From Isurus oxyrinchus (lineage: Eukaryota), in the NCBI GenBank assembly GCA_026770705.1, contig JANJGN010000034.1, positions 5,208,001 through 5,272,000 of the forward strand: DNA of 64,000 nucleotides, written 5' to 3'. Below, one piece after another: positions 557 to 61,923 of this stretch (the stretch's first letter is position 1; every line of letters starts with the position of its first letter). A program made the translations under genes and the position numbers. The notes under the pieces were generated by a model, which saw only the letters and a program-made list of their open reading frames with translations, did no database searches and had not been told where the DNA came from.

Positions 557-592
557 GGACAGATGCATGTGAAGCCGTTATAAAATTAAAAG
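557..592 (+). CDS. Probable 36-nt phase-1 exon upstream of the heptad array, encoding (G)TDACEAVIKLK
   Basis: Acceptor ttgtattttttgttataattgtacag and donor AAG|gtgagc. Length is a multiple of 3, the exon is open in phase 1 and it ends in G like the 21-nt exons. Confidence 0.55.
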
Positions 593-1093
593 GTGAGCCA
601 AAGTTGCTGTTTATTCGACACATTTGCATAACCACTGACACTGTGGAATACATAATATATTTGCTATCCATACAAGTGAGAATGAAAATGAAAAACATGC
701 TAGATTCGTTTGATTGTTTGAACTGTCGAAATGGGCACATGGGCTGGGGACCTACATGATGAAAACTCTTTTTTATGCACATCTATGTGAACCGTTAAAT
801 TTATTGTTTATTTTTGTAATAATATCATGGTTTTTTCATATGTATATATAGCTCTCACAAAGTTGTGACACAGCCTCATTCCTGATGATATAAGAATAGT
901 GTGTTATTAAAAGCCACCTAATTCCAAAAACAAGCATATACAAGCTCCAGTATGTGCATATTTTAATAAACGAACGACACAAGTATAAGTTTATTTTTCA
1001 TGTATTTCCATGTAACGATATTTCCACTGCAATCAATAGACACAGGTAGGCAGCTAGATTTCTCGTTATTTCTTCTTTTATTTTATTTTTTAG

Positions 1094-1120
1094 TCATTAA
1101 TGGAAAACAAATCATACCAG
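1094..1120 (+). CDS. Possible 27-nt phase-1 exon, (V)INGKQIIP
   Basis: Very long pyrimidine tract ending ttttttag, open in phase 1. The donor CAG|gtggca is weak and the peptide is not heptad-like. Confidence 0.25.
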
Positions 1121-1342
1121 GTGGCAGCGAGATCAGCACAGATATTGACGTAAAATAAAACGAAGAAGGCAACAGCATTGAAGTTGTCAGCTCTGCTAAC
1201 ATTGCCTCTTCTGAGTCATTTAAATAACTGTTGATTCTCTTTTCCTGAACACAAAGCTCTTTCAGCGCACACTTATATTTCCCCCTTAATAACATTGCTC
1301 AAATGTCTGCAAAATGGAGAGCAACCTTGGATCTGCAAGACT

Positions 1343-1896
1343 TTTTTGTATATTTCAGGCTCCATTTATGGCTGTAGCAACCACCATTGAGTAACCCCTT
1401 TAGCGTAGCAGACAAATGCATGGCAAGTGAAAATAATCGAGTTTGTGGGGCTTCCACCAATGAAGCGTCCATGTCTCATATCCGGGATTAACTGGTATTT
1501 TTGTTTTATTAAGCGTGGTTATAGGGAAAGAGCAATCAATTATTTGCTAATTTGACATCCTGCTATGAGATAGGATTCCATGAACTTATGAAAAAGCGTT
1601 GGTGGGTAATGCTTCTAATCGTAAGAAACAAAAAAAAAAGAAACAACATTTTCATGCAAAAAAAAATATTGTGGCCGAAAGGTTTTATCACCGAATAACA
1701 CTAAAATGTTTTTAATGCTCATACCTGAGGTTCATTTCAGATGACATTGCATTCTGCCAATTTCTGTAAACTAAAATACAGAAAATAGGCAATACAGCTA
1801 GAAAAGGTGCAGAGAAGCGCTCCTGAAATGCTCCGCTAAAGGGGTTACTCAATCGTGGTTGCTACAGCCATAAATGGAGCCTGAAATATACAAAAA
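1343..1896. repeat. ~68-bp near-perfect inverted repeat (arms 1343-1410 and 1829-1896)
   Basis: Left arm tttttgtatatttcaggctccatttatggctgtagcaaccaccattgagtaacccctttagcgtagca is the reverse complement of the right arm, with 2 mismatches counted by eye. Confidence 0.9.
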
Positions 1897-3175
1897 GCAT
1901 GAGATGTTTGAGATATGAACGTTAACAAAATAAACGTGGATCTTCTGCCCAAACGAAAGTATGTAATGGACAGCTTTAGAAGAGTCATTCAAATGGTGAG
2001 CAGTTTGATCTTATGGAACACAGCAGAGCAACGTGTTTGTAATCCTTGGCAAAGGTTCAACAAAAGCTTTAAAATGTTCAGAAGAGAAAATTATTATCGC
2101 TTTCTTATACCAATATTTGTTATTACGATACTCAATGCAGTGCCCATATGGATGGCAGAAGTAGTTTCAAAACTTAGTAGAAGTAATGAAAGCAAACAAA
2201 TGCAAAAAAAAAAAACAATTTGAATTTAAAAAAAATGGAAGGATTATTTATCTGTTAAAATTGCACTTCATTGCTACCGGACAATCTGTATATAAAAAAC
2301 CCTTAGGCACGACTATTGTAACAAACACATCTGGTTCATTATCGTTTTTGAGGGAAAACACCTGGAGCCCTTATAGAATCAGGATTGTTATTACTAAGAA
2401 GGAGAAATTTCCCCCGCTTGTGTTTGGTTCAGCTTACCAAATGAACAATGCATCATGAGCAAATGAGTGTCGCCTCTCCTCAGCTCTCTCTTGGAAACTT
2501 TACGCCTTCTTTCCTTTCAGATAATAATCCAATTTATTTTCGAACCCTTTGCTTAATCCAGCCTCTGCAACATTAAGATGGCACATTGTTACAAGTAACT
2601 ACACATTATGGGAAAACAGTTTCTCCATATGTTTCCAGTTTTCCTTTGGCCAAAAAACTGACACATGTGCCTTCATGCGTTCGATGGTTCTAACGGTAAG
2701 AATCCCTCTCTTGAATCCGAATGTTTCTGTGTAAATGCGTCCCAACTTTTTGTTCTTAAAATTATTAATGAAAGATCTCTATCTTTGCCATCATTCTAAT
2801 GCATTCAGAACTTTATGAAATTCTGTCGCCCAAAAGTGGATAAAATATTCCCGTTGAGGCAGGACAAGTATTTTATATATGTTTCAGAGGGCATCAAAGC
2901 TCTAAAACTGTAATTTCTGATTAATAGAGCCCAGGAAATTGTGTGCGTTTTTGCAGTGCTCTGAACTTATACTGATATATGGAATGCCTTATGCTTATGT
3001 GCAAGCAGGTCCCCTGGCACACGCACCCGTTTTAGAACTCTACCCATTGTTTAGATTATCTTTCCGTGTCCTTTTTGCTAAGTTGAATTTCTTCACAATT
3101 CTCTGCATTGAACTTCATTTGCCACTTATCTGCTGATTCCACGAAATGATCTGTGTCCTGTTAATGCACAGTCAC

Positions 3176-3460
3176 AGTGGGACACAAGTTCATGGTGAGG
3201 GGCAGGAGGCTTACGGGGGGATGTGAGGGAAATCTTTTTTTACGAAGACAGCGATGACGTTCTGGAATGCACTGTCTCGGAGGGTGGTGGAGACGGCTTG
3301 GCTCACATCATTTAAAATGTATCTGGATAAGCACTTGGGATGTCATAACATTCAAGACTATGGGCCAAGTGCTGGTAAAAGGGATTTGCTTGTTTTTCAT
3401 GTGTCGGTGCAGACTTGATGGGCCGAAGTGCTTGTTCTGCACTTTGAATCTGTGATTATG
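3176..3460 (+). mobile_element. CR1-type LINE 3' end fragment
   Basis: Typical CR1 3' sequence (ggacacaagttcatggtgaggggcaggagg...tctggaatgcactg...gatgggccgaagtgcttgttctgcact) ending in a short tgatt-type tail. Confidence 0.7.
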
Positions 3461-5229
3461 TTATAGTTCTATATTATCCTCTTTGTAGTTTATAATGCTT
3501 TAATGTTTTGTATAATCTGCAAATTTTAAAATGTACCCTGTTTACGCCATTAATATATGTCAAAAATGGCAGGGTATCTACAGCTGCCCCTGGAGAGATT
3601 CATTGCGAGACTTCCACCAGTGCATCAACTTTAATTAAACACTAGTTTCTCTTTCCTGTCATTCAGCCAATTTTTGAGTGAACGATGTTACTGCTGCTTC
3701 AATGCATGAACAATATTTATTTTTAAATGTCTCTTGTGCGACAGTGCATCAAATGCCTTTGGAGGTCCATGCAAACTACATTAATAAATATTACACTAAC
3801 CAAACTTCTACATCACATCTTTAAAAGCTGCAGCAAATTAACTAACTACGGTTTCCTTTTCACACATGCATCATCTATGTCTTAATTAACATGCATTTAC
3901 CCAAGTGACCATTAAAAGTGGCCCGAATGAGAAGTAAAACTGCCTGACTAGCAGTTCTTATATAGCTTTTTTAGAACACGGGTGCAACATTGCCAAGGCT
4001 ACAATCCTCCAGCACTGCTTCTGTGTCTAAGGAACACTGGGAAATTGTTGCCATTGCCTCTGAAATTTCCATTCTTACTTCTGCAAGTATCTTTCTATAG
4101 ATTTCATGATTTCATATTTTTCTGATGCCTTATCAAAATTTAGTTGTGGTGGTCTTTGTAAAACATACTTGTTTACATTTTAAACCATTCAACTGGCTAC
4201 TTGCTTATTTCTCACCATAACCTAAGCAATCACGCTATTCCTTGGTAAGACAAATGCAAAGTATTATTTTAGCAATCGGACATACACAACGCTGGATATT
4301 GCCTACAGGTAACGAAGTACTTTTCACCAGCTGCCAGTCTCCTGTCGTGCTATCAATTAGTTTCTGCCATTTAGTTTTTTACTCCTCCCCTGACAATTTA
4401 ATGTTTGGCATCGTTCCCTGTGGCATAATCCACCCGATATCATACGCACACTTTTTGTTCTTTATCTTATCTCCTTCCTTATCTGGAGTTTTCTTGATCA
4501 GCTTGTCCTTTGAATGCATTCATGGGGATATATATTCCATGACCGAGAAAGCTATCTGCTTTAAGTAACCCAATATTTGGTTTAATTTGCTTTTATTTGC
4601 ATGAAAATCTTTGCCTCCAATTTATCTTGACCAGATCCAATCCTCCCCCCTGACCCAATGGCACAACCTCCCAAAATACAGCGCCCCCCTCCCCCACCAC
4701 GCCACACTCAACACCCACCCCCCACCCCCCTGCGAAGATGCTGCCCTGTAGTTAATTATTATTTTAATGGATTGTTGTTTGCCCTTTACCATAAAAAATT
4801 TCGGCCTTATGATACATTGCTTACTGTTCATAATTTGGTTCCTGCCAATATGGTGTCCACGTGGTCTACCCCATTCCCAAGAAACAGGCACTGTTATTTC
4901 CCCTGGAAAAACACTGCTTTAAAATTGACCTGAGCACACCAAAGGAATGTTCAAGTCTATCTGCCCTTTCAGCAACCACTGTACTATTGTAGATTCGGAA
5001 AGTTGAAGTTCCCCATTAGAACGGCTGCATTTAGTCGCTGGCAAGACAACATTCCCAATAGCATTGAGCGAACATCTTGCTGATGGACAATTTACGAAAA
5101 TGCGATGTTAACCAGCTTATGAAGAAAATATATATTACAATATAATATACATGCTAAGAAATGGAGAAAGTTTACAGTGTGTATCAATACAGAGGAATCC
5201 GGGCATTCTCGCCCATTGGTCAAAAAAAA

Positions 5230-5900
5230 AGCCGGCATGGAGGCACAAGTAATTAAGAAGGCAAATATAGTTTTGGTCTATTTGTAGCGGGTAAAAGGAC
5301 GGAAATCTTACTACAATCGCTAAGGCCGTTTCTGACACCTGGAATACTGTCCACAGTTTTGTTCTCCTTATTTAAGCTGGTATTCTAGGCACCTCGGGGA
5401 AGGTTCACTCGCTTGCTTCCTGGAATCAATAGACTGTCTTATACGGAGACGTTGCATGGATTAGGCAGAAGCTCAGTTGATTTTAAGCAGGTAGCATTTG
5501 GTCTTATTGAAAGGCATAAAGTTCTGATGGTTCTTGACATGCTTTCTGCTGTTTGGATGTTTCCCTTCATGTGGAAATAATGAACGTGGTAGCACTGTTT
5601 TAGAATGACGGAATCCCATATAACGGACAGAATTTTGTTCAATAGGAGGCCATTCAGGTTTGACATTTTTTGACGTCAGAGTGCAGTGGAGGCTAGAACA
5701 TTGAATATCCTGCAGGCTGGGTTAAACATTTTTGTACGTTCTAATATTGCTTCACTTACGCAGCGTGAGGGAGAGGGAATTAAGAGAGGTTTTGGAGTTG
5801 AGGCCAAGATCAGCAAAGATCTTATTCAATCTCGGAGCAGGTCCGAGAGGCTGAATGGCCTATTGATTGTTCTTTTTGTGTATTTACTTCTTATGTTATG
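5230..5900 (+). mobile_element. Degenerate CR1 LINE 3' portion
   Basis: cacctggaatactgtccacagtttt (HLEYC-QF-like ORF2 C-terminus), followed by a CR1-like 3' UTR and a cttatgttatg tail. Confidence 0.7.
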
Positions 5901-7084
5901 AATTAAGTCTGGTGAGCTGCATATCCTATGTGTTCCATTAATGCACGGATGACAAAAGCAAATTAAATAATTATTGAAGTAATAATTGAATACTTCACTT
6001 AATTGATGACAAGCTGAGACAACTGAAAAATTGGTTGACCAGCTCGTTGACAGAGTCGGCACAGATACCTCTTAAATAAAAACTGCTGATAACTCACATT
6101 AATGAGAAATATGACGTCAGTATTCAGATGACTCTATTTTTTTCTCCCGACACTTAACAAGGCATTTGTATCTGAATTGCTCTTTGAAGTGATAGATTAA
6201 TTCAAGTACCCAATTGCATTTAAGGCGACGGCTACCTATGGCTGTATCAATGACAATTAAGCGTAAGCATCAAATAATGTTCCAAGCATTGATGGGCAAA
6301 AACCGTGAAGAATATAGAGGAGGAGTAAATAAAAGTGTAGTTTTGCCTGACCTGTTCCTGGACTTTATGCAATCTCTGTTTAAAAGCCTGTAATATAACT
6401 TACAGGATCCTCAGACGCAGAAATGTTAAGCCTTTTGTTTTTCTCAACAATTTACTCAACTTTCAAATCTCTCACACTTGCTTCTTCCTTCTTCTTTTAT
6501 TCTCTATATTTCTCAAAATATTTGGACACCTTTCGTTATATTGCCTTGCATGATTCAGTATGTGAGTCAATTTGTCAGCAATGGAGTTGATAAAAGATTT
6601 TTGTACGATTCATTTCTAATTCGAAGACGCAATGTAGAGCAACTTTGTTCTTGCAACAATTGTAACTTATTGCAAGTACTATTAACGTTGGGAACATGCA
6701 TTGAATTATTCAATATTGAAAAAGAGGCGAAATGTCTTATTCCTAGTGGAATTTCGTGCCGAGATAATAACATTACAAACCCACAGGTTTCTCAGGTTCT
6801 CCGTGTTTTGTTCCTCTCTCTGCCTTTTATCCATTTTGAACACTAACGCCGACAAAACTCTCTATCTCTCGCCTTTCCTCCAACTCCTTCATGATGTGGC
6901 AAGAGTGACCTTAGCACAGCATGTGTCTAAAAGTTGTGCTTTGCATGATGCTCATGTCAAAATATAGCTCACAGTACCGTAAAAGACGAGGCCTGTGTTC
7001 AGGAGCCTTGTCATTGGTTTGCTTTCACTGTTCATGCGGAAAATAAGTAACAGAACAAATCATGCTTTGCATTGTAATCCACAG

Positions 7085-7105
7085 AACTTAAGCAGCGTAA
7101 TGATG
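7085..7105 (+). CDS. 21-nt heptad microexon, ELKQRND
   Basis: catgctttgcattgtaatccacag|AACTTAAGCAGCGTAATGATG|gtaagg. Confidence 0.8.
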
Positions 7106-8735
7106 GTAAGGACATGCCATAAACCCTTACACATTTGTTTGACTCTATCTGGACTGTGTGAAAGTGACAGTGACAAGAAAAAACTATTTGAGAATTTCAA
7201 GCATATTTAAGGTACGGCTAAAGTCATTAAATATCCTGCAATGGGCCAGGGTCATAGATGTCTTTGTTCTCGGCGTGTATCACAAGACTACTTCTATCGG
7301 GTCAATGTCGTTATATACCCCGCACTATTTTTTCCATCTGCAGTCTTTAATGAGCCATTTGCACATTTACCTGTTTTGAATTTCAACTTAAATAATGCAG
7401 CAGTGTGCCCAGTTTCACAGCTTGGGGGTAAAGCTTTTACAGGGGTCTCAGGGAATATCTTCGGGAATACTACAACAGGTGAGCGACTAGTAAAGTGGAG
7501 AGACTGAATCACCGTTAACTGTTTCTCCCCAAGAGTACCCCCCCCCCCCTTTCCCCCCACCACCACCCCTCCACCCCCACACCATGTGAGTGGGAGATTT
7601 AAGAGCGGGAAACATAACTGAGATAAGATTGGTTCAGGTGAATCTCGTTCTGCTGTTAAGGTGTTGAGCAAATAATCCACAAGATACCATAGATTGACAA
7701 AATTACAAAAGAAACCTGAAGGATAATTACGATATAATTGGTTCCTGTGATTCTGCATGTAATTCTGATAACTAGAGTTCGAACAGCATACAAAGTACTG
7801 CGGGCAACTCTGCACGGCATACTTTAAGATGATGCACCACCAGAAAAGGTGAAAGCAAGAATTTACAACATTATACCCAAAAACCGACAGTGTAACATTC
7901 CATTCAAAAACAAATTGCACGGGCAACTTGTTTCTTTGTGTTTCTCACGAAAAGGGAAGATTGTGCAGTTTATTTTAAAGAATATACTTTTTTTCATTTA
8001 CACATGCGTTCATAGTGTAGGCAAGGAGGAAATAATTCCCATCGTGGGATATAGCAGCTTTCATGAATATGATAAATTCATAAAATAATTAAATGAGTAA
8101 TTTGGAGATAATATATTGTTTGCCCAGATCATGGACCACAATAACACTGGCAGAAGTTCAGCTGATGCCGAAAGAGGTACTTCAGAGGAAAGAGGCAAGA
8201 AGCCTGAAAATACTTTAGAAGGCTGTGCTCACAGGCTTAGCTGTATTCCAGAAACTGCTCTGTATTTCCTTATGAGATGGTTTTGTGTTATACCTGAAAA
8301 CAGACCTGCCAAGACCTTCGGCACGTGTTAACATGTTATGGGCTTTATGAATGAAATGCCTTGCTGGCTTCTATGAGTCATACCACTAGAACGAAACACA
8401 ACCTAAGCATGAACACTAAACCACGTGCATCCTCAGAAAAATAGGTTTTTAACGGAATGGAGCGCAGAGCACACTTTTTTTATTGACATGTTTCCTCTCT
8501 CTGGTATTTTATTCAATTCGGACGCTGACACGTGGCCTATTCGGCTCCCCTGCCTTGATATGGCTGGTCTTTTCCCACCATGTGCCTGGACGCGCTTTTA
8601 TTTGGGAGATGAGATGTGCCAAACGGTTTTGCTAAATCTAAATCCTGGCTTATGTCTGTTGTTATCGTGCTGTGAGTTACCATTACAGAAATCAATTTTA
8701 CGAAATCGATCATCGTTTTACTTTATGCCCTGTAG

Positions 8736-8756
8736 ATATTAAGTCCCTCGAAGCAG
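8736..8756 (+). CDS. 21-nt heptad microexon, DIKSLEA
   Basis: cgttttactttatgccctgtag|ATATTAAGTCCCTCGAAGCAG|gtaagc. Confidence 0.85.
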
Positions 8757-11700
8757 GTAAGCAACCCGACTGATGAGTGCATGTATATGTATGCGTGGGT
8801 AATATGGTTGAAAATAGAATTGTGATAAATGCAAATTTAGATGGTTCTTGCATACATCAAATTGACACTAAAATAATTAATTAGTCACATCATTGCCATT
8901 TATTAATTAAGCTCAGCATTTCCCAGCAATTCCCAGTTCAAACAAAAACTACATGTTCAACGGGGCCAATTATTGCTTCATCAAACCAGTAAAACCAAAT
9001 GATAGTGGGCTTGTCAGAGGCGCAACCAACTTGCTCAGGAACAACAAACACGATGAAGCACAGTTTTGGTGCTGCCTGAGCTACCCAGACACATATATCC
9101 GTTGAGCCTTTCTCCACATTTTGACAAAACAACTAATTTCAGGGGACAAGAGAAAGTCAACGCAGCATTTCACCATGTGTGACATTGAAGAACAAAAGCA
9201 AGATTGTCATCCGTTGGATTCGGGAAAGAAACACATCTTACTCGTTGAGTCATAGCTAGCACAGAGGAAGGTGGATTTGGAATGTGGGAAGTCAATGATT
9301 TCACGTTCAATACACTACTGCAGCACTTCCTCATGATAGAATTGTAAGCAAAACCACCTGTCCAAGCATCGTATACTTGGGGCCGAGAATATACGGGAAG
9401 AATTTGGAAACACGTGGATGACTGCAGAGGGTTCAGTCCATTTACGTCAATTCATTCCCAAGGTTTAGAAAATATATATATATCAATCGCAGGGACTATT
9501 CAGTCCGGGCTGCAGCGCAAGACTGGATGAACTATTAAACTCCATGGCCTAGTTTTTTATGAACTATCGCTATATTTATTAAAAAAACGTAAAGCAGCTG
9601 CCCTACGATCTCTTTTTAAAGAAGCTTTTATATCGCTGTGTCCATTTTGGCACCACATGGGCATGGATATAACTTAAAATCTCAGTGTGCGTTTGCATTG
9701 GATATTTAATAGAATAATAGTGAACATTTCAGCTTCAAGAACAGTAAGCAAAATGTAACACAGCTCATGGGTACCTTCGCTAATCTCTTTGGACTGGCTC
9801 GAAGTGTTTTTCTCATCATGTATGTCTAGCTCGCAGCCGTGGCAGCAAAATGATGTGACCAAGTAGTCTTATCCACACCCGGGCAAACAGCTTCGACCGA
9901 TGTGACAAACCAGTATAGGGTAGCTGTCGTGCAAACTACCTTATCCAACTAAGTTATTTGTCTACCCTGGCCTGTGAAGATAGCTTTCAGCAGACTGCGT
10001 GGAAGAAATCAATCCAAGCCCCTATTGTTCTGAAGGGTGTTGAACACCTCCGCCTGGAAGGCGTGCTTCATGCCAAGAAATGGACAGCATCCTGGTTTGA
10101 CATTTTTGTGGGTATAATTCCAGCTATCTTCATTTGCCCTGCCATTAGAGTAAGGTTGGTCAGAGTGATAGAATCAGGCTGAAAAAGGACATCGCTTATT
10201 CACTGTACTTCAATTCAACTTCGAGGGAGGTACATCACAATTAATGCATCTGTAAATATATCAGTTATGCGCCCTTTGGCGCTGAATGAGAGCAGCAGTA
10301 GCAGAAGTGGAATCAAGGGATGTGTAGCTTAGAACATATTTGCTTGAACTTCATGCCTCTGGATCGTTTGTAAATGGAACATAAATTGAAACTCGACAGA
10401 TCCACATTCAACTGAGGAGTCTTTTTCAAGACCACTTTGTTCTTATTACACGTATGAGAAAGTACGTGAAAATCAAAAACTATCCTACTCGTCTCCTGTT
10501 TTATCAACCTAGTGAACATGACATATTTTCCTGAATCCCATTAAAACGGTTGAAATTCAATTCTCACAATAGAATGGAACAGTAACACTAGTCACAATAG
10601 GCAAATGGAGAACATCACATCCGGGAGAACTGGGAAGAGGAACGGTTCTGTCGGTGGAGAGTTAGCTAGGTACAGGTTGCAGATTGCCGACCTCAGTGAG
10701 TTTCATCCACATATAGATTGACAACACAAGGGATAGGTTTCAAGCTCCACATTCTTCTGGATTGCCTTGGAAAGTAAGCATGGTGCTAACTGGAGTTGGA
10801 GCTGCCACGAGCTATCTTGCCAGAAAGTTGACCTGTCTTCCCTTGAGAGGTCTGGTGCTGCTTATACACCCATTGCACTGATATCGGAATGGAAATCTTA
10901 TTATGCGCCTATCATGACCAAACTGGACGAAGTCAAGAATATTATGTGTTGCCATCCCCTCTCTCATTGATACTGAAAACAAAATCATAGATATTAATCA
11001 TTATTGGCGACTGCAACTCAAAACTTGGTGCAGATCACTAGGCGTGGTAAGGTGTTATCAGAAATTAATTAAAACAAAACAACGTTGGCTGGTATAAAGA
11101 AAGGTGATGTTGGTGAAAATATGCGCTGAGCATGAGTTCGTAATCGCCCATGCAGTTGTCCACCTTCCTAATCATAACAGAAGTTTTTAGAAGCACACAC
11201 CTTCTATGAATTGGTGTTAAATCGACGATGTAATCGCCAGCCAAAGGGTGAGGCAGCTATCTGAAAATGAAAGCCATATTAGGGGCTGAATATTTGACTA
11301 CCCAGAGTCTTCAGATTTCAAAGCTAAGTACCAAAATATATCTGAATATTTGCCCCCTGGATACAAAGGCCCATATCGTCACAACAACCCATGGCTATCT
11401 GCCAGCTACGCAGATAGTTCATTGATTGAAACCCGATAGTTGCCTGTATAAAGAAGAATTGGATACTCACTCTACTGGGGACGTTTTGTTGATCTTCAAG
11501 AATGCAGGATGCGCTGCTTGACAGGCCGTTCTTCCTACCCCCCGTAACCTTCAAGATTATATTAATAAATGCATTGATTTAATCCAAGAAATATTTGGGG
11601 AAAGGTATCTATTCAAGGCTTTCCTTACGAACAACGCATCAGTCTGCAATCATGGTGGCAACTGAAACATGTTAAGCAGCATCCCATTCCCGCTCAAATA

Positions 11701-13639
11701 TTTACAAGACAAAATTGGCTGAATCGGAACACAATGATGTTCAGTCACACACACACCACAAGGATTGAAATGGTTCAACAATGCTCCTTAATCTTCAATT
11801 ACCTCCAGTTTACTGATTCGTTATCAATTCTAGGTGCCAACAAAATAATAACTCTTACAGAGAATAACATCTCTAGTATAAAAATAGGCAGAGCACGAAA
11901 TGCAAATGCATGCTTGCCCATCCTCCATCAATGAAGAACCTTTGCACAGGCTGCCACAAATCTCAATCAACTGCATGTTTTATAGTCCCAGAATGAAGTA
12001 AGAAACGACAAACACAAAACAGCTCCTGTCTTGAGGCAAATCTCCAGGACCTGATGCTATCCTATCAGTGTCTTACAGGGCGAAATGTCAATTCTTGTTC
12101 AAGAAACTCACTCAATTTTTTTTTGTGCGTGTGGCAGTAAAAATCAATCTTGCAAGAAAACAAAGATGCCTCCGTTGTACTACTGTAAAAGTGGAAAGTA
12201 ACTGTCCAGTTTTCTGACAATTACACAGGAATCTCACTCCTCTCCAAAGCAGGAAATGACTTCACCGAAATCTACTTGAGCCACTTAGTGCAAGATTTTG
12301 ACGATGATTGACTGCGAGAGTTTCAGGTCGAGGAAAAACAGACATGCTTTTTTTCAGCTAGAGATTTCCAGGAGAAATTTCAGCACCGAAATGTTTTGCC
12401 TCCACAACGCTTCTAGACCTGAGAATGTGTTTTTTTTTCTTTCATAGTCTGTCATGAAAGCGTTGGGATGGCTAAGTCGAAATTGAACTGATAAATTCAT
12501 TTCAAGATTGGATGGAAACTTGAAGGCATTCACGTGCATGCCCTGCAAAATCATAAGTATTTTCACCCAATCCCAGTCATTAGGTGAATAAGAAAACAGC
12601 TGACTGCCAGCCAAAGCAAATGTCAGCATGTATTATTCTTCTCTTTCTGATACATTGTCTGATTACCTCCACGGTGGGCATAGTGGCAACTAAATCATAT
12701 ACCACATGGAAGGTGAGTTGTTCAACCTGAGTGGATTCCAGGAAATATTGTGGGCCTTCCGGAAGGCATTAACTGCTTGCCAAGGATGGTGTACTATCTG
12801 TCGGTTCAGGGCTCCACGTGCAATATAGCATTGACATGCAAAACAATCCATGTGCCAAATTCGGCCTTCACATTTGGAAAAACTAATCTGACGAAATGTA
12901 CCAGACATCTACTGGCTAGTTGTATCTAGATCTCAGCTCCACAGATCATTCTCAGGAGAGGTTAGCAGTGGAGGAGACGGCATACTCCGGCAGCATACTC
13001 TCTCAGTCTGTCTTCATTGAGGACCAGACACATGCATCAATTTACGAACAAAGTATAAGATTTGTAAACATGAGAACATGAGTCTGAGAGTGAAGTCTGC
13101 CGAAAAGAAAATGATTACCGAGAGAGCAATATTCCTCACCACTCTGATGGGACAAGGATTTTTCTCAATAACTGCTTAGAAGCACTAAAACTTCTGTTTG
13201 GGTTGCCTATGATGCCCCTGTGGATCAAAATTTAGAGCAAAATATCTTAAATTGGGGATGGCATGGAAGCTGGTAGGCCAATCCTCAATACCATGATAAA
13301 ATAATCAGGTGAGATTTGGGATTTTCAAGCAGACAAAATTCCTGACGCTGGCTTAACAAACCTAATCTTCCAATGGAGATCCTCAGTAAGGAGCATGCTC
13401 TCATACGATTAAAAATTGTCCTGAAAGGACACTGGAATATTTTTTTGCAGAGAATTTTGCTAACCACTTTGAGTCCCTGAGTAAAACTCGGCCACAATCG
13501 CTGCAAAACGTACAAAGTAACAATTGAAAGCAAAGTGGCGTTTTTTTTAAAAAAGTTAAATAAATGGAAGTTAACTTGCAGAAGAAGAAGTGCTGAAATT
13601 GGAAATTTAATTTTATGTCACTCCACTGATCTCCAATAT

Positions 13640-15729: not shown

Positions 15730-15750
15730 AAAAACTCAAGCTCCAAAAAG
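15730..15750 (+). CDS. 21-nt heptad microexon, EKLKLQK
   Basis: gttttcaattatgctttcag|AAAAACTCAAGCTCCAAAAAG|gtacat. The donor is weaker than the others, but length, phase and terminal G match. Confidence 0.6.
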
Positions 15751-26765: not shown

Positions 26766-26769
26766 TGTA

Positions 26770-47329: not shown

Positions 47330-47350
47330 ACATGGAAAAGGAGATTGAAG
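47330..47350 (+). CDS. 21-nt heptad microexon, DMEKEIE
   Basis: catttccattccgcctacag|ACATGGAAAAGGAGATTGAAG|gtaaga. Confidence 0.85.
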
Positions 47351-50252: not shown

Positions 50253-50273
50253 TACTGGGGCTAGCCAAGGAAG
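50253..50273 (+). CDS. 21-nt heptad microexon, VLGLAKE
   Basis: atctttctattctgccgacag|TACTGGGGCTAGCCAAGGAAG|gtaaga. Confidence 0.8.
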
Positions 50274-53121: not shown

Positions 53122-53142
53122 CACTTGGAAAGGTCACTGACG
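53122..53142 (+). CDS. 21-nt heptad microexon, ALGKVTD
   Basis: tgttttccattccacctacag|CACTTGGAAAGGTCACTGACG|gtaaga. Confidence 0.82.
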
Positions 53143-55626
53143 GTAAGAAAATGGCGAAATGAATTTGATGTAAAACGTCTTAAATGCATCATCGATACAC
53201 ACGACCCCGAATGATATTTGAGAAGGCTCAAATTATTTACAACAAACCAAGAATCATGAACTAATCTTGAGAAGCCTAGATATTTCCTTGGTCCAAGTGT
53301 GTGGGACTTGAAATAAAATTTATTCCACGCAAAATGCTTTCAATACCTCGGACATTCCTAATGTCATCTATGCACCTACATTTCATGCAATGTTTAGATG
53401 ACACTCGTCGGTTAATGGCAATGCCTGGGATGAATAGCATTGAAAACAAACGTAGGTGTTGCTCCATAAGGGAAGCCAACGCTACGCTGGCAAAATGTCC
53501 AAATTCCGCAAAGGCTATCACCTTGAAGTGCTAATGCAGCAGCAGGAGGGAAATGCCACCAAGTGCAAACTAAGCTCCCAGCCATTGAGCAAACTGAACA
53601 TTAGATCTTTCCTCTTTCATCATGACATTTACAGTTTTGCATTGCTTTTCCTGGTCTGAATCGATGCCAAGGAGCTGTTCAATATCATTCACATTACAAT
53701 TGTAAGGTGTGCCATAACATATAATCATTGTTAAGCATAACGTTCGTCTGACCACAGCTGGAGAACGGTGTGCATCTCTGGTCGCCGCACTAAATGCAGG
53801 ATGTGACTGCAATGGAAATGGTTGAAGGGAAATTCACCTGGATGTTACCTGATTTGGAGCATTCGAACTCTAAGAGGAGTCACTCTAGGCAGCGTTTTTA
53901 ATTCCTCAAAGCTAAGATGCTAGTCAGGGATCTGATGAATTCATATAAAACTATGAAGGACAGAGATATGCTAGATAGGAAGAAATATTTCCCATTAGCG
54001 GAGATTACAATAATAATGAGGCTTGGATTTAAGTTTAGGCAACAGGGAGTTCAGAGGGGAATTGATTATTCCCTTTTTTTGCCCAGAAGATGGTGGGAGT
54101 CTGCAACATACTGCATGATTGAGGGGGTGTGGTCCATTCCATCACAGTGCAAACCTGTGCCCTGTAGACGGTGGACATGATTAGATTAGTTAGGCAGAGA
54201 GTTGCACTCCGCAGATTGTCCAGAGCTTGGCCAGCTGTGAGTATTTGAAAGATGTGGTTCACTTTGTGCTCATTAATAACACCAAAGATTTTAATAGACA
54301 TGTATTCAGCCATGGTATTCCTTTGTAAGTCAATTGCGATTCTCTCTTTTTGGAGATTGTTATTTTCTGGCTTTTGTGAGGCACGAAATGTGTTTGCCAC
54401 TTTACAGCCTAAGCCTAAAGCAGCACTTGCTGCAGATAGCCACGCTGTCCATCCTTCTAAACCAGGACCAAATCGTTTTTTTGTCTCTTTTAGTGGAGCG
54501 ACCTCATTATTCTGAATATTCATATTATTTTGTGAGAAATCACATGAAACGATATAGCAATATCAATGGAAGTGTTCAAGGAAAATATTTAATTGGTATC
54601 CGTATGGATTTCGTGTATATTACAGAAGAGGAAACATGGTAAAATTAACCATGACAGAAAGAGATGGGGCTGGTGTGTCAAAGAGCGGTAATTAATATTA
54701 TGGAACGTATTTAGAGTTGACAGAGGAACTAAAATGTATCTGCTTGTGGCGAATATCAAAAGCGCAAAAATATTTGAACTTAACTAGGCACCAATCTGAT
54801 TGTGACTCTATTGCTCTCTTGAACCACTGAGCAAGCTGCATAAGTTAATTGAGGGCAATTAACTGAAAATACAAGTATCACTGAAATTCTCTGCCCTTCC
54901 AAATGTGAGTTTTTCTGCACTTCATGGTATTTACGTTTAGCGTTTTAAGTGCTGAAAAAAAGTTTTCAAAGCCTAAATATGCCGAGGAGCTTAGTTCCGA
55001 GGTTGTGCTCTCATCTCTGTGCTTCCTTTGATTAAACCATCTCCGAATTTTACAACTTCTAATCAAATCATTTGTCACCCAATTTTTGCCCTTCGACGCC
55101 ATTTGTCTTTTGTATTTGATTTGTTAATTGCAGCATACCCTTACTTGTTAATGCAACTCTGACGTGACTTGTTATATTTTGCTATGCTGATGGTGCCATA
55201 TGCATTTTATTCATTGCCACATTTGCATGATTCTATAATTCTCACCATGGTCACTCTAGGTCAATGATCTTAAGCTTGAACTCAATCCTCATCACTTTGT
55301 ACGTTAATTGGACTGCCTTGGTAATTGTTTTCCCATTTACGTGCTCCGGTAAATTTGAGATACTTAGCATATTTGAATCATTCTCCGCTAACGTATGTAT
55401 TTGAATGTTTCAAAGAGAATTATGAGGATATTTTGGTGTTATATTACTCGTACATTGCTAGCACATTCATGCATGCTGTACTTTCTATGAACTGCTTGTA
55501 TTCGAATGTTACAATACCAGGTCGATACTACACTCTGAGCTTGGTTTTACAGTCAGTTGTTCTGTTAACTGTTGAAAAGTAAATTCAATTTGACGCAAAT
55601 TTGAGAGCTTTCTATTCTGCCTACAG

Positions 55627-55647
55627 AACTGGCAAAGACCAATGAAG
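55627..55647 (+). CDS. 21-nt heptad microexon, ELAKTNE
   Basis: gctttctattctgcctacag|AACTGGCAAAGACCAATGAAG|gtaaga. Confidence 0.85.
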
Positions 55648-56590
55648 GTAAGACCATGGCGAAATAAATTTTGTTGTATAGTGCCATGCCTGTGTCATGG
55701 TTAAACAGGAGCCTGAATGCAATTTAAGAAGGCTAGAATTATTTACAACATCCCAGAATCAGGAAATAATTGTGTGAAGTCTACATATTTACTCTAACAA
55801 TGAGTGTTCGACTGGAAATAATATTTATTCCAATGAAGATCTTCTGAATCTGAAAAGCATGCTTAATGTCTGGGCTGAATAGTTTTGACAAAAAACATGG
55901 CTGTGGCTCAGCAGGGGATGCCAAAATCTCTAATTCCACAAGATCTGTCACCTATGCGTGCTGACAAAGCAGGGAATGGGAAAGCCGGCGAGTGCAAACT
56001 CAGCTCAAAGCCAGTGAGCATTCGGTACAGAAATGGTATCAACATTTTCTCACTGTCGCGGGGCCAGTATTTCTAAATTACCCTCCCAAGATCCCAGCGG
56101 TTTTCCTGCATTATCATTCCTCGGGTCCTGTAAGAAAGCAAACAGGAACAGCGTGACATATGACCCCAAATTTAGAATTCATAACGGAAGTCTTGCACAT
56201 AACTGTCCATGAGTTTCCACCTCTTTTGGAAATAAACCCTCATCAGGAAGCATACGAAACATCGATGTAATATGGGAGATTTCAGATTATTCCAAATTTC
56301 TTATCAGAAGAGGTGCACAAATAAATACCCAAGAACATAAACCACTGCAAATGCTTGGATACATAAATTAATTGTTCGTAATCCAGCGCACCAGCGAGCG
56401 CTGAGATCAGCAGTGGCAATATACAGAAAATTAATAATTCACATCAGTTTCCATTTCCTAGCACATGCAATGCTTCCTCTTTCATCATAAAATGGAGAAT
56501 TTTTCATCGCTTTATTGGCCTGAATCAATGCGAATTTGGTGTTGAAATTCACTAACATTACAATTGTTAGTGGTGCAAAAACAGATAATC

Positions 56591-58591
56591 ATAAGACTAC
56601 AAGACAAAGGAGAAGAAATCAGGCCAATTGGCCCATCGAATACGCTCCACCATTCAATTAAGGCTGAAAGATTTTCAACTCCGTTTTCGCACCTTCTTCC
56701 CATAACCTTTGATCCCCTTACCAAACTAAACCTATCTATCTCGATCTTTAATGCACTCAATGTCCTGGCCTCCACAGATTTCTCTCGCAATGAATTCCTC
56801 AGATTTACCACTCTCTGGCTAAAGAAGTTGCTCCTAATCTCTGTTCTAAAAGGTCTTCCCTTTACTCTGAGACTGTGCCCTCGGGTCTTAGTCACTCCTA
56901 TAAATGGAAACATCCTCCCCACGTATACCCTATCCAGGCCTTTCATTATTCTGTAAGTTTCAATCAGCTCCCCCCTCTTCCTTCTAAACTGCATTGAGTA
57001 TAGACCCAGAGTCCTCAAACCTTACTCATATGTTAAGCCTTTCATTACTGCGATCATTCTCGTGAGAATCCTTTAGACCTTCTCCATGGCCAGCACATCC
57101 TTCCTGAGATTCGGGGACCAAAATTCTCACAATATTCTAAATCTGGTCTGTGCAGAGCCTTTCAAAGGCTCAGCAGCACATCCCTTTATTTATATTCAAG
57201 TCCTCCCAAAATGAATGACAACATTCCATTTGCCTTCCATATTACCGACTCAACCTCTATTTTAACCTTAGGAGAATACTGGACCAGGACTCCCAAATCC
57301 CGTTGCACTCCAGATTTCTGAATTCTCTTCCCAATTACAAAATAGTCCAAACTCTCCTTTTGCTACCAAAGTGCATGTCATCAAAATTTCCCACGTTGCA
57401 TTCTACCTGCCAGTTCTTTGCCCATTTTCCTAACCTGTCCATATACTTCTGCAGCCCGCCCGCCTTCTCAGTTCTACCTGTCCCTCCACCTATCTTTGTA
57501 TTATCTGCAAACTTAGCCCGGATGCCCTCAGTCCCATCACCTAGATCGTTAACGTATAAAATGAAATGTTTTGATCCCAACACACACTTCCAGAACTCCA
57601 CCAGTCACTGGCCGCCATCCTGAGTAGGATCCCTGTATCCCAACTCTCTGCTTCCTGCCAGACAGCCAATATTCTATGCATTCTAATACGTTGCCTCTAA
57701 CTCCATGGACTCTTCTATTTTGAGCAGCCTCCTGAGCGGCACCTTGTCAAAGGCTGTCTGGAAGTCCAAGTAGATAACATGCATTGGCTTTCCTTTGTCT
57801 AACCTACTTGTTACCTCCTCAAAGAATTCTAATAGATTTGTCAGGCATGACCTCCCCTTGATGAAACCATGCTGACTTTGCCCGATTTTTCCATGTACTT
57901 CCAAGTATTCTGAATTCCCATACTATATAATGGACTCTAAAATCTTAGCAACAACATAGGTCATGCTAATCGGACTGTAACATCCCGTCTTTTGCCTCAG
58001 TCCCTTATTATACAGGGGAGTTACATTAGCCATTTTTCAGTCCTCTGGGACTCTCCCTGAGTCCAAGTGATTCCTGAAAGAACACCACTAACACGTCCAC
58101 TAACTCTTCAGCTATCCCTCCTTGAGAACTATGGTGTGTAATAGATCTGGTCCAGGTGATTTATCCAACTTCAGACCTTTCAGTTTTTCTAGCACCTTTT
58201 CCTTGGTAATGCCCACCATACTCACCTCTGACCCCCGACCTCCTGAACTTTGGGAATCTCACTCCTGTCTTCCACTGTGAAGACTGATGCAAAGTACCTA
58301 TTCAGTTTCTCGTCCATTTCTTTGTTCCCCGCGACTACTTCTCCAGAGTCATTTTCCAGTGGCATAATGTTATCCATTGCCTCGCTCTTACTCTTTATAT
58401 ATCCAAAAAAAACCTCTTTGAATCTTCTATAATATTATGGGGTAGTTTAACCTCATATTTATCTCCTTACTTATTTATTTTGTAGTTGTCCTCTGTTGGT
58501 CTTTGTAGGCTTCCCAAACCCCTGGTTCTCCACTGCTTTTTGCTGCATTGTATGCTTACCCTATAGCTTTTATGGCTGTCCCCGACTTCGG
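56591..58591 (-). mobile_element. Younger 5'-truncated CR1 LINE (~2 kb) inserted into a cassette
   Basis: Minus-strand ORF fragments [22 protein letters not shown]...[23 protein letters not shown] and KTRGHSLRVKGRPFRTEIR...FFSQRVVN. The element splits the cassette motif ataatc|attgctaagc. Confidence 0.95.
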
Positions 58592-60497
58592 ATTGCTAAG
58601 CCATGACTTTTGTTAGACAACAGCTTGAACAGTGTGTGCAGCACTGTTCGCTGCACTGAAGGAAGTATGTGAATGCACTGGAAATAGGTCAGGGGAGATT
58701 CACCTGGAATGTGCCTGATTTGGAGTGTTTCAACTATGAATAGAGACTGGCTAAGCTGCCTTTCTTTTTAATCCTCAGAGCAACAATGCTAATCAGGGAT
58801 CCGATGAAGTTATATAGAACTGTGAGGGACATAGATAGGGCAGATAGGAAGAAACATTTCCCTTTAGCGTATTTGACCATAATACTGGGGCATGGCTATA
58901 ATTTACAGAGCAGGGAGTTCAGAGAGGATTTCTGGATTCCTCTTTCAGCCAGAGGGAAGTTGGAATCTGCAACACAATGCCTGATTGAGTGGGTGTGCTC
59001 TGTTCCATCGCAGTGCAGACCTGTACCCTGTAGATGGTGTACATGATCAGGTCAGTGAGGTGTAAAGTTGCTCTTCACATATTTTTCAGAGCCTAACCTT
59101 CCTTTTAGGCGTTGTATATGTTTGAAAGCTGCAGTTAAGTTTATGGTCATTGGTAAGACCAAAGAGTTTAAAAGACGTGTATTCAGCCAAGCGATTCTTG
59201 TGAATATCAAGGGAGTATGATTGGATTCTCTCTTTTTAGGGATTGTAATTTTCTGGCTCCTGTGAGGCATGAAATGTGTTTGCCATTTTACAACCCAAGC
59301 CTGAAACAGCTCGTGCTGTATATCGCCACACAGTACTTCCTTCCAAACCAGTGTCATTTTTTTTTCTCATTTAGCACAGCGGCCTCATTATTCTGAATGT
59401 TCATCTTATTTTGTGACACATCGCATGAAGCGCTCTAACAATACCATTAGAAGTGTTGAAGGAAAAATTTTAAGTGGGAACTGTATGGATGTCAGGTGCA
59501 GCATTTACCGTGACACGAGGAGATGGGGGTGGTGTGTCAAAGGGTGATAATTAATAATATGAAATGTATTTACAGGGTTACAGCTGGGAAATAAAATGCT
59601 TCTACTGGTGGGGGAATATAAAAAAAAACAATAAAATATTGGAAATCAGGGAAGCAGCAATTTGATTGGTACTGAATGGATTTCATGGATCACCAAGCTT
59701 TCTACAGTCTTTAATTCAGGGCAATTAGCTGAAAATAAAGCATTCAGTGAATGTCTCCGCCTTTCCAAATGTCAGGTTTTCCATACTTTATGGCTTTTGC
59801 CTTTAGTCATTTAAGTGCTGAAGGAATGTTTTCGGGGCCGAAATTTGCCAGGGAGCTTAGTTCAGAAGTTCCATTCTCATCTCTCCACGTCCTTTGATTT
59901 ATCCATCTCCTAATTGTTAGTGCTTCTAATCGAATCACTTGTCAAGCAGACAGACTTTGGCCTTCTACCCCATTCGCGTTTTTTTTTTTGCTTTGTTATT
60001 TGGAGCATACCATTATATGTTCATGTAGCTGCGACGTGAGTTGTTATGTTTTGCTATATTGATGGCGCCATATGCACTTAATTAATTGTCATGTTTGCAT
60101 GATTCTATAAGTCTCACTTGGGTTACGCTAGTTCAAGTATCTTCAGCTTGAAATCAGTCATCATCACCATATATATTAAGAAGACTGCTTTGATAATGGT
60201 TTTCCCATTTAATGGTTCCTGAAAATTTTAGATATTCGTGTATTTGCATCATTCTCTGCCAATGTATGTATTCGAATACTTCACAGAGAATTATGAGGCT
60301 TTTTTGGCGTTATATTACTCGTACATTGCCAGCACAGCATGCATGTTGTCATTTCCATTGACCTGCTTGTTATGGGATGCCACAAACCAATGCCAATACT
60401 GGATTGTGAGTTTGGTTTTGCATTTATTTGTTCTGTTAATTGTGCAACTGTAAAATAATTTTGACGAAAATATTTGAGCTTACTGCTCCGCTTGCAG

Positions 60498-60518
60498 ATC
60501 ATGCAAAGGTCAATGAAG
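60498..60518 (+). pseudogene. Degenerate heptad microexon DHAKVNE with donor GT>TT
   Basis: tactgctccgcttgcag|ATCATGCAAAGGTCAATGAAG|ttaaga. All paralogous cassette exons have gtaaga here. Confidence 0.75.
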
Positions 60519-61902
60519 TTAAGAACAGGACAAAGTCCATTCTGATGTAAAGTATCTTACCTGCATCAGCGGTACACAGGCGCCTGAATGCAATTTTATC
60601 ACGCTAAAATGTTGTACAACAAACCCAGAATCATTAAGTAATCGTGGAAAGCTAGGTAATCCTTTGGATCAGAAATAATACAAGACAGGAAATAATGCTT
60701 CTTCCACAGAAAAATTTCTCAATAACAGCAACATTCCCATTGACTTCCATGCACCTATATTTGATGCAATATTTAGATGGCACTGGTAGATTAATCGGTA
60801 TGTCTGGGATGAATAGTGCTGAAGAAGAAAGTGGGTTTTCCTCTGTAAGGGAAGCCAACGCTCTGCTGGCAACATCTGTAATTTCAGCAAATGCCTACCA
60901 CCTAGAAGTGCTAATGCAACAATGGCATGGGATCGATGGCAATTGCAAATTCAGATCCAAGATACTCAGCAACCTGAACATAAACGGTATCAGCGTTCCT
61001 ACACTGTCACGGGGTGCGTATTTTCCTCCCAAGCACCAACCGTTTCTTCATTCAGTATCGTTGCTGGGAGTAATACCAGAATGTAGCCAGGAACCATGTT
61101 GGATTTCCACTCAAATTAAGAAATCACAACGCATGGATTGCAACAAAATTGTCCGTGAGTTTTCCACTTCTTTTGGGCAATTGTCCCGCACCTCCAAAAC
61201 TCCAACATAATTTGGGAAATTGTTGATGATTCCAGATCTCTTTGCAGAATAGCTATGCAAATAAATTCCCAAGGAACAAAACCACTCTCAAGCTTCTATA
61301 ATTCAACTAATTGGTCGTAACCTGGCACACCAGAACGCATCCAGGTCAACGATGGCAATATACACATTATTGGAATATGAAAAATAAATGCTTTTCTCTT
61401 ATAAACTCTTGTGAGTAATTAGCTTCAACATCCCCAATACAGGATTTAGAACAGTTAGCTATGCTCCCTACCCGCCAAATAAAATGCTGTTTCTCCAACA
61501 AGTGTCACTCTCAAGATGTTCATTAAGTTTTATCTCTTCAATGATGTTCTGCTCAATTGCCCAATCTTGCTCCTTTGTATCAGCCTTCTTTTTGCAAAGC
61601 ACCTGTAAATGTTATTTTATTGACTAAGGATGCAGACAGGTTATTAACGTGCGGTTTCCTCCTGTTGCACTTGACTCCTTTCAAACCCTTACACTTGAAA
61701 GACTTATATCTCTAGGAGAGGTTTAACTGCTATCCAAGAAGAAATTGCCTTGGATTGATTTGTTGCTTGACATGAACTGTGGAAAAAGTTAAGATACTAA
61801 GCTGGAAGTTCTACTTTGCTTTCTTTGTGGTGACTTTGTTAACTTCTCTTCTGTGAACGAAGAATTTGCAGCTTTAATTGTAGGTTCTATCCACCCTGAC
61901 AA

Positions 61903-61923
61903 AGATTGTGAAGTGCAGAGGCA
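61903..61923 (+). pseudogene. Degenerate heptad microexon EIVKCRG with acceptor AG>AA; paralog of 34607-34627
   Basis: ttctatccaccctgacaa|AGATTGTGAAGTGCAGAGGCA|gtaagc. Confidence 0.7.

Follow-up and report, generated by a model that had tools for sequence, protein, structure and literature searches.

A 64,000-nt stretch of Isurus oxyrinchus DNA (C34:5,208,001-5,272,000; "the window" denotes this whole stretch, and window-relative coordinates count from its first letter) raises the question of whether regularly spaced 21-nt segments in it are exons of a single coiled-coil gene, and, if so, to which known family such a gene could be related.

Short exons in the window

A sequence-only reading had proposed a hidden gene segment in which each phase-1 exon encodes one heptad, a layout that escapes ORF scans, and this proposal is supported here. 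All thirteen plus-strand 21-nt segments lie between an AG and a GT at the coordinates it gave, with GTAAG donors in 11/13 and a final G in 13/13. These include the heptad exons at 7085..7105 (weak acceptor; region 78 % identical in paralogue B), 8736..8756 (supported by splice tests and comparison with paralogue B), 15730..15750 (weak donor; the least certain of the thirteen), 18893..18913 and 20577..20597 and 25364..25384, with cysteine encoded at core position d in the 18893 and 25364 exons. The others belong to duplicated families and comprise 33194..33214 (family 1, opening a three-exon block), 34607..34627 (family 2, cysteine at d), 39423..39443 (family 3), and the family-1 exons 47330..47350 (within a tandem 2.9-kb intron-exon unit), 50253..50273, 53122..53142 and 55627..55647. 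The span originally noted is bounded by a predicted 36-nt phase-1 exon of twelve codons (557..592, plus strand), of which class nineteen further members occur outside the window, and by a dead 21-nt copy (61903-61923).

Using a fixed splice test over the window (pyrimidine tract plus AG, N bases, GTRAG), eleven matches of 21 nt were found on the plus strand and one on the minus strand, and counts for the remaining lengths between 12 and 39 nt ranged from zero to four on either strand. Generic splice-site weight matrices, their frequencies not fitted to these exons, gave eleven 21-nt matches on the plus strand, none on the minus strand, and at most two at other lengths between 9 and 60 nt. The eleven that pass the fixed test compare with a chance expectation of 0.75 (maximum 3), obtained by simulating the window 100 times with an order-3 Markov model. 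Two of the thirteen exons, 7085 and 15730, fall below the matrix thresholds on account of their weak acceptor and donor, respectively. An equal richness at lengths 20 and 22 or on the minus strand, which the earlier reading had raised against itself, was looked for and is absent.

Phase 1 is free of stops across the thirteen exons and is the sole open frame, as had been claimed, although the accompanying stop tally was incomplete: the 50253 exon also has a stop in phase 0, and nine of the thirteen are interrupted in phase 2, for which the 7085 exon alone was given. A recount agrees that position 2 is L/I/M in 10/13 exons, while position 5 is L/I/M/V/F/C/A in 9/13. The a/d heptad pattern is likewise borne out, with the hydrophobicity power of the thirteen joined exons peaking at a period of 3.5 residues (113, versus a mean of 12), a value equalled by none of 2000 within-exon shuffles. 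A tandem-repeat or satellite origin was rejected, the window holding just three trivial arrays, as was a retroelement origin, given that repeats yield minus-strand short AG-GT matches and a few plus-strand ones, all lacking the family signature. Four small RNA runs mapped on L027:7500-10000, a sequence that does not take in the window exons, gave coverage at repeats only, which speaks neither for nor against expression. The AG-GT segments are very probably coding exons that are spliced, or were until recently, with splicing predicted from the sequence.

Extent and organisation of gene A

The thirteen exons are predicted to lie midway in a very large gene, termed gene A, the interior of which occupies the entire window (1..64000, plus strand) and the array of which runs on at both sides. 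Gene A extends over at least 418 kb of the plus strand of C34, its minimum limits being 5,076,831 and 5,495,198, so that the array, originally described as unusually large and dispersed, is in fact far larger. It includes about 60-65 predicted phase-1 microexons encoding at least 550 amino acids, with 21-nt heptad exons first, followed by 36-nt and 27-nt exons, and its introns have a median length of 3.5 kb and reach 29 kb. An N-x-S sequon is encoded in the candidate exon lying furthest 5', which is 30 nt long and begins the array at C34:5,076,831 as far as it has been traced.

A curated chain of 59 exons spans 335 kb and encodes 553 aa in about 1.7 kb of coding sequence, with 39/59 exons (two thirds) being 36, 27, 33 or 30 nt long. 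This chain has no stops in phase 1, the two alternative phases having 45 and 61, and a 27-nt exon directly follows a 36-nt exon in 13/17 cases (shuffle mean 8.3; p = 0.002), but both figures are partly circular, since an open phase 1 and resemblance to the family were among the grounds on which exons outside the window were chosen. The chain omits several candidates, of 27 nt and other lengths, at window-relative 79339, 99817, 152211, 152466, 173631 and 207850. The 36-nt and 27-nt exons often alternate, and such a 36+27-nt pair makes up a 21-residue unit of three heptads with a hydrophobic stripe at positions 2, 5, 9, 12 and 16, and keeps the register of the 21-nt exons, in which codons 2 and 5 are hydrophobic.

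A pattern search for 36-nt exons recovered three known gene A exons and two matches on other contigs (control, one match), with nothing past 5.50 Mb. As this pattern detects only 3/20 known exons, the 3' extent of gene A is a lower bound. A candidate terminal exon at window-relative 282524, with a stop at matching positions in the two genes A and B, was withdrawn because 282558 is the start of a 36-nt exon of the family type in a different frame, and the stops are the donor consensus of this exon. Further candidate exons follow at 284578 and 287163. Three protein-search matches to bacterial repeat proteins were also discarded as homologues, as the query was in the wrong frame and had been lengthened with intron codons of paralogue B.

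Between 4.09 and 6.58 Mb, C34 carries three paralogous arrays on the same strand (X, A and B), and gene A is one of them. Genome-wide searches with two exon patterns placed 12/12 and 27/28 matches on the C34 plus strand, in three clusters, with 0 and 1 match for the reversed-pattern controls. Paralogue B is colinear with gene A at 78-80 % identity in four tested stretches, and the acceptor of one of its 36-nt exons reads AA instead of AG. The 5' stretches L030 and L031 yielded no paralogous match on C34 that could point to a conserved exon among the 40 candidates scored for each, which were mostly repeats.

Relationship to BG and butyrophilin genes

The sequence-only reading had assigned the segment to a BG/butyrophilin-like or analogous coiled-coil gene. 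The BG-like layout holds: the exons agree in length and phase, paralogues follow one another on a single strand, and growth is by exon duplication. Membership of the family is not supported, and the evidence favours an analogous gene. The origin in a cartilaginous fish, which that reading took as probable, agrees with the genome size of 4.98 Gb, the MHC and large V clusters, and the types of repeat. Chicken BG exons are described as being 21 nt long, occasionally 18 or 24 nt, and number 13-36 per gene (PMC4046983, PMC5938342); their first codon is split, and the hydrophobic a/d positions fall on codons 4 and 7 (PMC5938342). As in gene A, many 21-nt phase-1 exons encode one heptad apiece, paralogues stand in tandem in the same orientation, and exon number is altered by duplication and loss (PMC4046983, PMC5938342, PMC8813856). 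Variation is concentrated in the coiled coil of both, which for BG genes is the tail (PMC8813856). Butyrophilins, in the accounts available, combine IgV, IgC, few heptads and usually B30.2, and as a rule are found on the MHC chromosome in cartilaginous fishes; they share very short heptad exons in series with gene A, but these are few there as opposed to about 60 here (PMC6790196, PMC12841164).

These likenesses of exon length, phase, paralogue arrangement and tail diversity could be explained if gene A encoded a BG-like or butyrophilin-derived type I membrane protein with an Ig V head upstream and the array as its cytoplasmic tail, with or without B30.2. Cysteines are also present in BG tails (PMC5938342), and BG0 is located off the MHC chromosome (PMC5938342, PMC8813856). 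Such an origin is nevertheless unlikely. The hydrophobic stripe falls on codons 2 and 5 here but on codons 4 and 7 in BG (PMC5938342), and gene A incorporates 36+27-nt three-heptad modules and about 60-65 exons, whereas BG tail exons are nearly all 21 nt (PMC4046983, PMC5938342). Exons of the 36/27/33/30-nt classes dominate its chain, its introns are kilobases long, and it lies off the MHC contig, C21, where MHC class II alpha is found together with the clusters of IgC and B30.2 exons of butyrophilin type. All 110 first-look candidates for butyrophilin-type IgC (C2-set_3) were scored, and the 37 matches include none at C34:4-6.6 Mb, although a very divergent exon might escape this first look. 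Scoring of the other domains covered part of the candidates, which leaves some room for a BG-like head or a B30.2 tail: no V-set was found at the locus among 150 of 3319 candidates scored genome-wide, no PRY on C34 among 150 of 313, and 150 of 308 SPRY candidates gave a single C34 match, on the minus strand at 3.47 Mb. BG genes have a single extracellular Ig V exon upstream and a transmembrane exon immediately ahead of the heptad exons; no IgV or transmembrane exon was recognised in C34:5,066,001-5,085,000, in a gene with introns reaching 29 kb, and no convincing transmembrane candidate was found in the 10.8 kb 5' of the 5'-most microexon. The array can be described as BG-like in its working, while membership in BG or butyrophilins is not supported.

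Predicted product and its location

The array in all likelihood encodes a coiled-coil rod. The product would be a long parallel coiled coil, probably a dimer, the length of which could shift by whole heptads in evolution with frame and register intact, and exon skipping may perhaps change it in the same manner. The 553-aa chain is K/E/D/L-rich, with hardly any aromatics, four prolines, no tryptophan and 22 cysteines, and cysteine takes up position 5 in 21 % of the 21-nt exons and 50 % of the 36-nt exons. Given this placement of cysteine mainly at core d, an extracellular disulphide-linked stalk is considered likelier than a cytoplasmic tail. As neither gene end has been reached, topology is read from composition only, and an extracellular rod is favoured by a small degree. 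Cysteine is no proof of an extracellular site, since BG cytoplasmic tails have a conserved cysteine and at times clusters of them (PMC5938342). The chain includes a lone N-glycosylation-type sequon in its 553 aa, an observation that runs counter to the extracellular reading.

A soluble intracellular structural coiled coil without a membrane anchor, for example of the sperm tail, egg or epithelial cytoskeleton, with cysteines serving in late cross-linking or lipid modification, would suit this uniform composition and single sequon. The fully scored domain searches (IgC and C1q) also show no known family at the locus. This alternative is improbable, considering that the cassettes are all symmetric and in phase 1, a form typically seen in modules placed after an exon for a signal peptide or transmembrane segment, and that amino acid divergence among copies is fast, which is unusual for a structural filament.

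An extracellular rod would belong to a protein that is either secreted or anchored in the membrane, and would serve as its disulphide-linked stalk, in the manner of the stalks of tetherin and PV-1 or of lectin necks. The coiled coil is likewise the main body of tetherin (BST2), TMCC(aT)/CCDC194 and PV-1 (PLVAP), according to the account in PMC10617486. In this genome, a stricter first look placed the PV-1 match on C12 rather than C34, and a search for BST2 gave no match over the cut-off. Such proteins combine an N-terminal transmembrane helix with an extracellular coiled coil and a GPI or second anchor; no transmembrane or GPI part was found in the DNA covered at the C34 locus, which stops short of both gene ends. 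The tetherin and PV-1 stalks carry core cysteines, but the genes of all three proteins have few exons, in contrast to the about 60-65 of gene A. The stalk of CD23, a type II C-type lectin like the CD209 family, is built from a 21-residue, three-heptad repeat unit similar to that of gene A, where two exons of 36 and 27 nt share this unit. Among 150 of 616 candidates scored for the C-terminal lectin domain, none lies on C34, and the same holds for all 68/68 candidates scored for the C-terminal domain of C1q-type proteins with a coiled neck. The micro-exon genes (MEGs) of Schistosoma also consist of many short symmetric exons that could be skipped without a frameshift, but are unrelated in sequence and lineage, and the gene A cassettes in addition keep a coiled-coil register. 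Synteny markers were discarded as a means of identifying C34: besides PV-1, a full-length match to TRAPP, which adjoins the CD209/CD23 neighbourhood in mammals, lies on C29, the APP family on C24, C18 and unplaced contigs, and myelin P0 on unplaced contigs. Taken as a whole, the best reading, of cassette exons of a huge gene encoding a length-variable, dimeric and more likely extracellular coiled-coil rod, stands at about an even chance of being correct.

Birth, loss and constraint of exons

The array grew, as intron homology shows, by duplication of whole 2-3 kb intron-exon units, and shrank in some copies through splice-site mutation or exon deletion. Sixteen duplicated units were recognised, with flanks 70 % identical. 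For example, a copy of the 2.9-kb family-1 unit at 41467..44900 (plus strand) has lost its exon and includes a retroelement fragment (~43197-44383), while further downstream a family-1 copy (60498..60518) is dead through a donor change from GT to TT, with its frame still open, and a family-2 copy (61903..61923) through an acceptor change from AG to AA. In the duplicated block that holds the family-2 copy, the third exon (window-relative 67121, just outside the window) has likewise had its donor changed from GT to TT.

These losses, amounting to 4/16 duplicated units, could point to a decaying pseudogene, in which formerly coding exons are now unconstrained, as could the dead acceptor in paralogue B and the closeness of pN (0.38) to pS (0.43) among six family-1 copies (15 non-independent pairs). 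This is very improbable, however, considering that AG and GT are kept in 12/16 units versus a neutral expectation of 7.9 (p = 0.035), and the full donor consensus as well in 11/16 versus 4.7 (p = 0.001), both under a rough model. Furthermore, none of fifteen exon bodies has a stop or length change, and three of the four losses fall within one duplicated block, which fits a single redundant block rather than general decay. The family-1 exon bodies (0.61 identity) have diverged as fast as their introns (0.71 and 0.69), a pattern compatible with diversifying selection and equally with weak constraint.

That X, A and B are internal repeats of a single 2.5-Mb gene, as their shared strand and the failure to find a head or terminal exon for any of them might suggest, is extremely improbable, as A and B each pass from the 21-nt class to a 36/27-nt region in identical order, and the arrays are separated by about 0.9-1 Mb without pattern matches.

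A more specific reading is put forward tentatively: an undescribed gene family of cartilaginous fishes may have come independently of BG to a modular ruler, encoding a surface or secreted rod from ~60 register-preserving cassettes. The birth of exons, the death of splice sites and combinatorial skipping would vary the length and surface chemistry of this rod, and the exon bodies would be under diversifying selection. As an equally tentative part of this reading, such selection would resemble that of host-pathogen or gamete-recognition conflict.

Significance

Heptad-per-exon arrays of such length are described for chicken BG genes (PMC4046983, PMC5938342), and no comparable gene in sharks or rays was found in the open-licence literature (PubMed Central, bioRxiv). 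Genes of this type, in which some 335 kb hold only about 1.7 kb of coding sequence, would be missed by ORF- and homology-based annotation; the exon signature retrieves paralogues with almost zero background. The gain and loss of heptads is visible within one haplotype, where live, splice-dead and deleted copies occur side by side. Should the head prove to be an Ig V domain, the BG design would be as old as the jawed vertebrates or would have arisen twice in one superfamily; should it not, gene architecture would here have converged in a clear-cut manner, though with exons and heptads set in another register.

Microexons of the window

The sequence-only reading had proposed thirteen plus-strand exons of 21 nt, each encoding one heptad, and all thirteen segments were recovered at their positions. 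With a fixed splice test, eleven 21-nt matches were found on the plus strand versus one on the minus strand, with 0-4 at other lengths between 12 and 39 nt, and generic splice weight matrices gave eleven and none, respectively, with at most two at other lengths. One hundred simulated windows contained a mean of 0.75 such matches, and never more than three. Phase 1, which places one base of the first codon before the junction and two after it, is the sole open phase, as had been claimed, but the earlier tally of stops was too low, as these occur in four of the thirteen exons in phase 0 and in nine in phase 2. The heptad pattern was likewise borne out: with the split codon numbered 1, Leu, Ile or Met occupies position 2 in 10/13 exons, and a hydrophobic residue, Ala or Cys occupies position 5 in 9/13. 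The hydrophobicity spectrum of the joined peptide has its maximum at 3.5 residues, a peak that none of 2000 shuffles reaches. The open reading frames in the window are all short, with no long coding frame to explain the splice sites, and one of the five scanned is a weak match to a retroelement endonuclease.

Extent and exon composition of gene A

The array of gene A, the predicted gene whose interior is the window (C34:5,208,001-5,272,000; C34, contig JANJGN010000034.1), fills 344 kb of contiguous DNA end to end (the window, 50 kb upstream and 230 kb downstream). A curated chain of 59 exons (twenty of 21 nt, twenty of 36 nt, seventeen of 27 nt, one of 33 nt and one of 30 nt; median intron 3.5 kb) comprises 1662 nt and 553 aa, with no stops in phase 1 versus 45 and 61 in the other phases. 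The chain is partly circular, because phase and likeness to the family guided the choice of exons beyond the window and no fewer than six other candidates were excluded. In counts made free of such selection, at a stricter threshold, the length peaks are confined to the plus strand (plus versus minus: 21 nt, 16 versus 1; 27 nt, 10 versus 2; 36 nt, 12 versus 0). Two further exons, of 30 and 21 nt, occur in C34:5,075,001-5,085,000, and five 21-nt-exon matches from the genome-wide pattern search fall between C34:5,085,000 and 5,158,000. Gene A thus spans at least C34:5,076,831-5,495,198, with about 60-65 predicted exons. C34:5,066,001-5,085,000 yielded no recognisable IgV or transmembrane exon, and no terminal exon was identified up to C34:5,495,198. 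A conserved site at window-relative 282524 was considered as the terminal exon and rejected; the array extends as far as the DNA analysed.

In the 3' part, a 27-nt exon directly follows a 36-nt exon in 13/17 cases (shuffle mean 8.3, p = 0.002). The 36-nt class is hydrophobic at positions 2, 5 and 9, and more weakly at 12, and the 27-nt class at position 4, which is position 16 of the 21-residue unit encoded by the pair; the pair carries the a/d register on across three heptads. Cysteine occupies position 5 in 21 % of the 21-nt and 50 % of the 36-nt exons of the chain.

Family searches and comparison with BG genes

A genome-wide family search placed MHC II alpha on a second contig, C21, which also carries most butyrophilin-type IgC matches, with none at C34:4-6.6 Mb (110/110 candidates scored). 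No C1q was found on C34 (68/68 candidates scored), PV-1 was matched on contig C12 and BST2 gave nothing over the cut-off. Neither V-set, lectin, SPRY nor PRY domains were matched at gene A or its paralogous arrays X and B among the 150 scored of 3319, 616, 308 and 313 candidates, respectively. Elsewhere, C21:80-118 Mb groups MHC II alpha with the butyrophilin-type IgC cluster, four lectin domains each encoded by a single exon, and over 100 PRY-SPRY exons; several of the SPRY exons recur about every 5.5 kb near 112.5 Mb. Taken with genome size and repeat types, the immune gene clusters suggest a cartilaginous fish. Most of the scored lectin matches derive from a very large tandem C-type lectin exon cluster at C43:0.02-5.96 Mb, on another contig. 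On C34, one SPRY exon (3,474,158-3,474,475, minus) lies upstream of array X but on the other strand, one V-set exon at 13.07 Mb (minus) and three weak C2-set exons at 16.39-16.51 Mb, none of which is placed with the arrays.

Chicken BG genes carry 13-36 tail exons of 21 nt, at times 18 or 24 nt, 3' of single IgV and transmembrane exons (PMC4046983), with the first codon split one base to two and hydrophobic fourth and last codons (PMC5938342); they are tandem, in a single orientation, and their tails are under selection for diversity (PMC8813856). Butyrophilins comprise IgV, IgC, a few heptad exons and B30.2 (PMC6790196); in those cartilaginous fishes that have been studied, they lie on the chromosome that carries MHC class I (PMC12841164). 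The split first codon is common to BG and the array, but their hydrophobic codons lie two codons apart in register. Of the features compared, layout and evolution thus resemble those of the BG array, and register, exon length, IgC and linkage speak against the BG/butyrophilin assignment first proposed. A BG-like cytoplasmic tail is unlikely. A soluble intracellular rod is more doubtful still. The closest models for an extracellular rod are tetherin, TMCC(aT) and PV-1 (PMC10617486), but these are located elsewhere in this genome than the arrays.

Birth and death of exon units

Tandem copies of a 2.9-kb intron-exon unit occupy window 41.5-56 kb, and three exons (33194, 34607, 39423) form a block that is present again at window-relative 60-68 kb and 84-95 kb. 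Some copies have decayed: all three exons of the 60-68 kb block have lost a splice dinucleotide, and the exon of the unit at 41.5-44.9 kb is deleted. Among sixteen units recognised by intron homology (flanks 70 % identical), both AG and GT are kept in twelve, where a rough neutral model predicts 7.9 (p = 0.035), and the fuller donor consensus in eleven, where it predicts 4.7 (p = 0.001). Fifteen duplicated exon bodies contain no stop or length change. Decay of the whole array as a pseudogene, for which the lost copies might speak, is improbable. Divergence of the exon bodies is rapid (pN 0.38 and pS 0.43 among six copies; identity 0.61, versus 0.71 and 0.69 for intron columns without gaps), a pattern compatible with diversifying selection and weak constraint alike. 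The combination seen here, in which splice sites, length and hydrophobicity at position 2 are retained and surface positions vary freely, is what would be expected of a rod that needs register, not sequence.

Several repeats also occur in the window. A retroelement fragment at 43197-44383, which we take to be Penelope-like, matches GIY-YIG weakly (E 1.7e-4, narrowly below the cut-off). Its relatives are numerous in the 280 kb of flanking DNA, and one of them has an open frame of 720 codons (window-relative 177503-179662, minus). The arms of a 68-bp inverted repeat (1343-1410/1829-1896; 97 % identical), separated by about 420 bp, resemble the termini of a small DNA transposon. The region 26000-32000 (GC 0.47-0.49 versus about 0.39 elsewhere), with several overlapping open frames of 100-230 codons, two of them scanned without a Pfam match, is probably a decayed transposon. 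A fragment at 56512-58588 (minus), with relatives in the flanks and no Pfam match at E 0.01, resembles the terminal part of a LINE reverse transcriptase.

Paralogous arrays X and B

Two degenerate patterns, each of a 21-nt exon with splice sites, were run genome-wide (~5 Gb; assembly 4.98 Gb). Their matches fall on the plus strand of C34 in 12/12 and 27/28 cases, versus 0 and 1 in 5 Gb for reversed-pattern controls. The 27 form three clusters, namely array X (C34:4.089-4.189 Mb, plus; 13 matches), gene A (10 matches) and array B (C34:6.461-6.492 Mb, plus; 4 matches). Array X (C34:4,088,595-4,188,792) contains thirteen closely similar 21-nt exons, which suggests a more recent expansion, and two have damaged splice sites in the matched letters. 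Four stretches of array B align colinearly with A at 78-80 % identity. Because the same interval measures 250 kb in A versus 38 kb in B, and the window's duplicated units have no match in B, either A would have expanded or B contracted. At C34:6,577,400-6,578,200 in B, AA replaces the acceptor AG of a 36-nt exon intact in gene A; B may either skip this exon or be decaying. That the three same-strand arrays constitute one giant gene is highly improbable.

Proposed product

Alongside the observed exon positions, phase, register, duplication history and three paralogous arrays, splicing and translation of the predicted exons is to be expected with high confidence, and the product very likely forms a parallel coiled coil. 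An extracellular location of this rod is slightly favoured over a cytoplasmic one; if it sits outside the cell, core cysteines could cross-link the chains. An extracellular stalk is overall the best reading, at even odds. No published description of such an array was found among open-licence PubMed Central and bioRxiv papers. The feature is real and unusual, larger and more structured than the sequence-only reading supposed, and represents a variant of the heptad-per-exon gene design.
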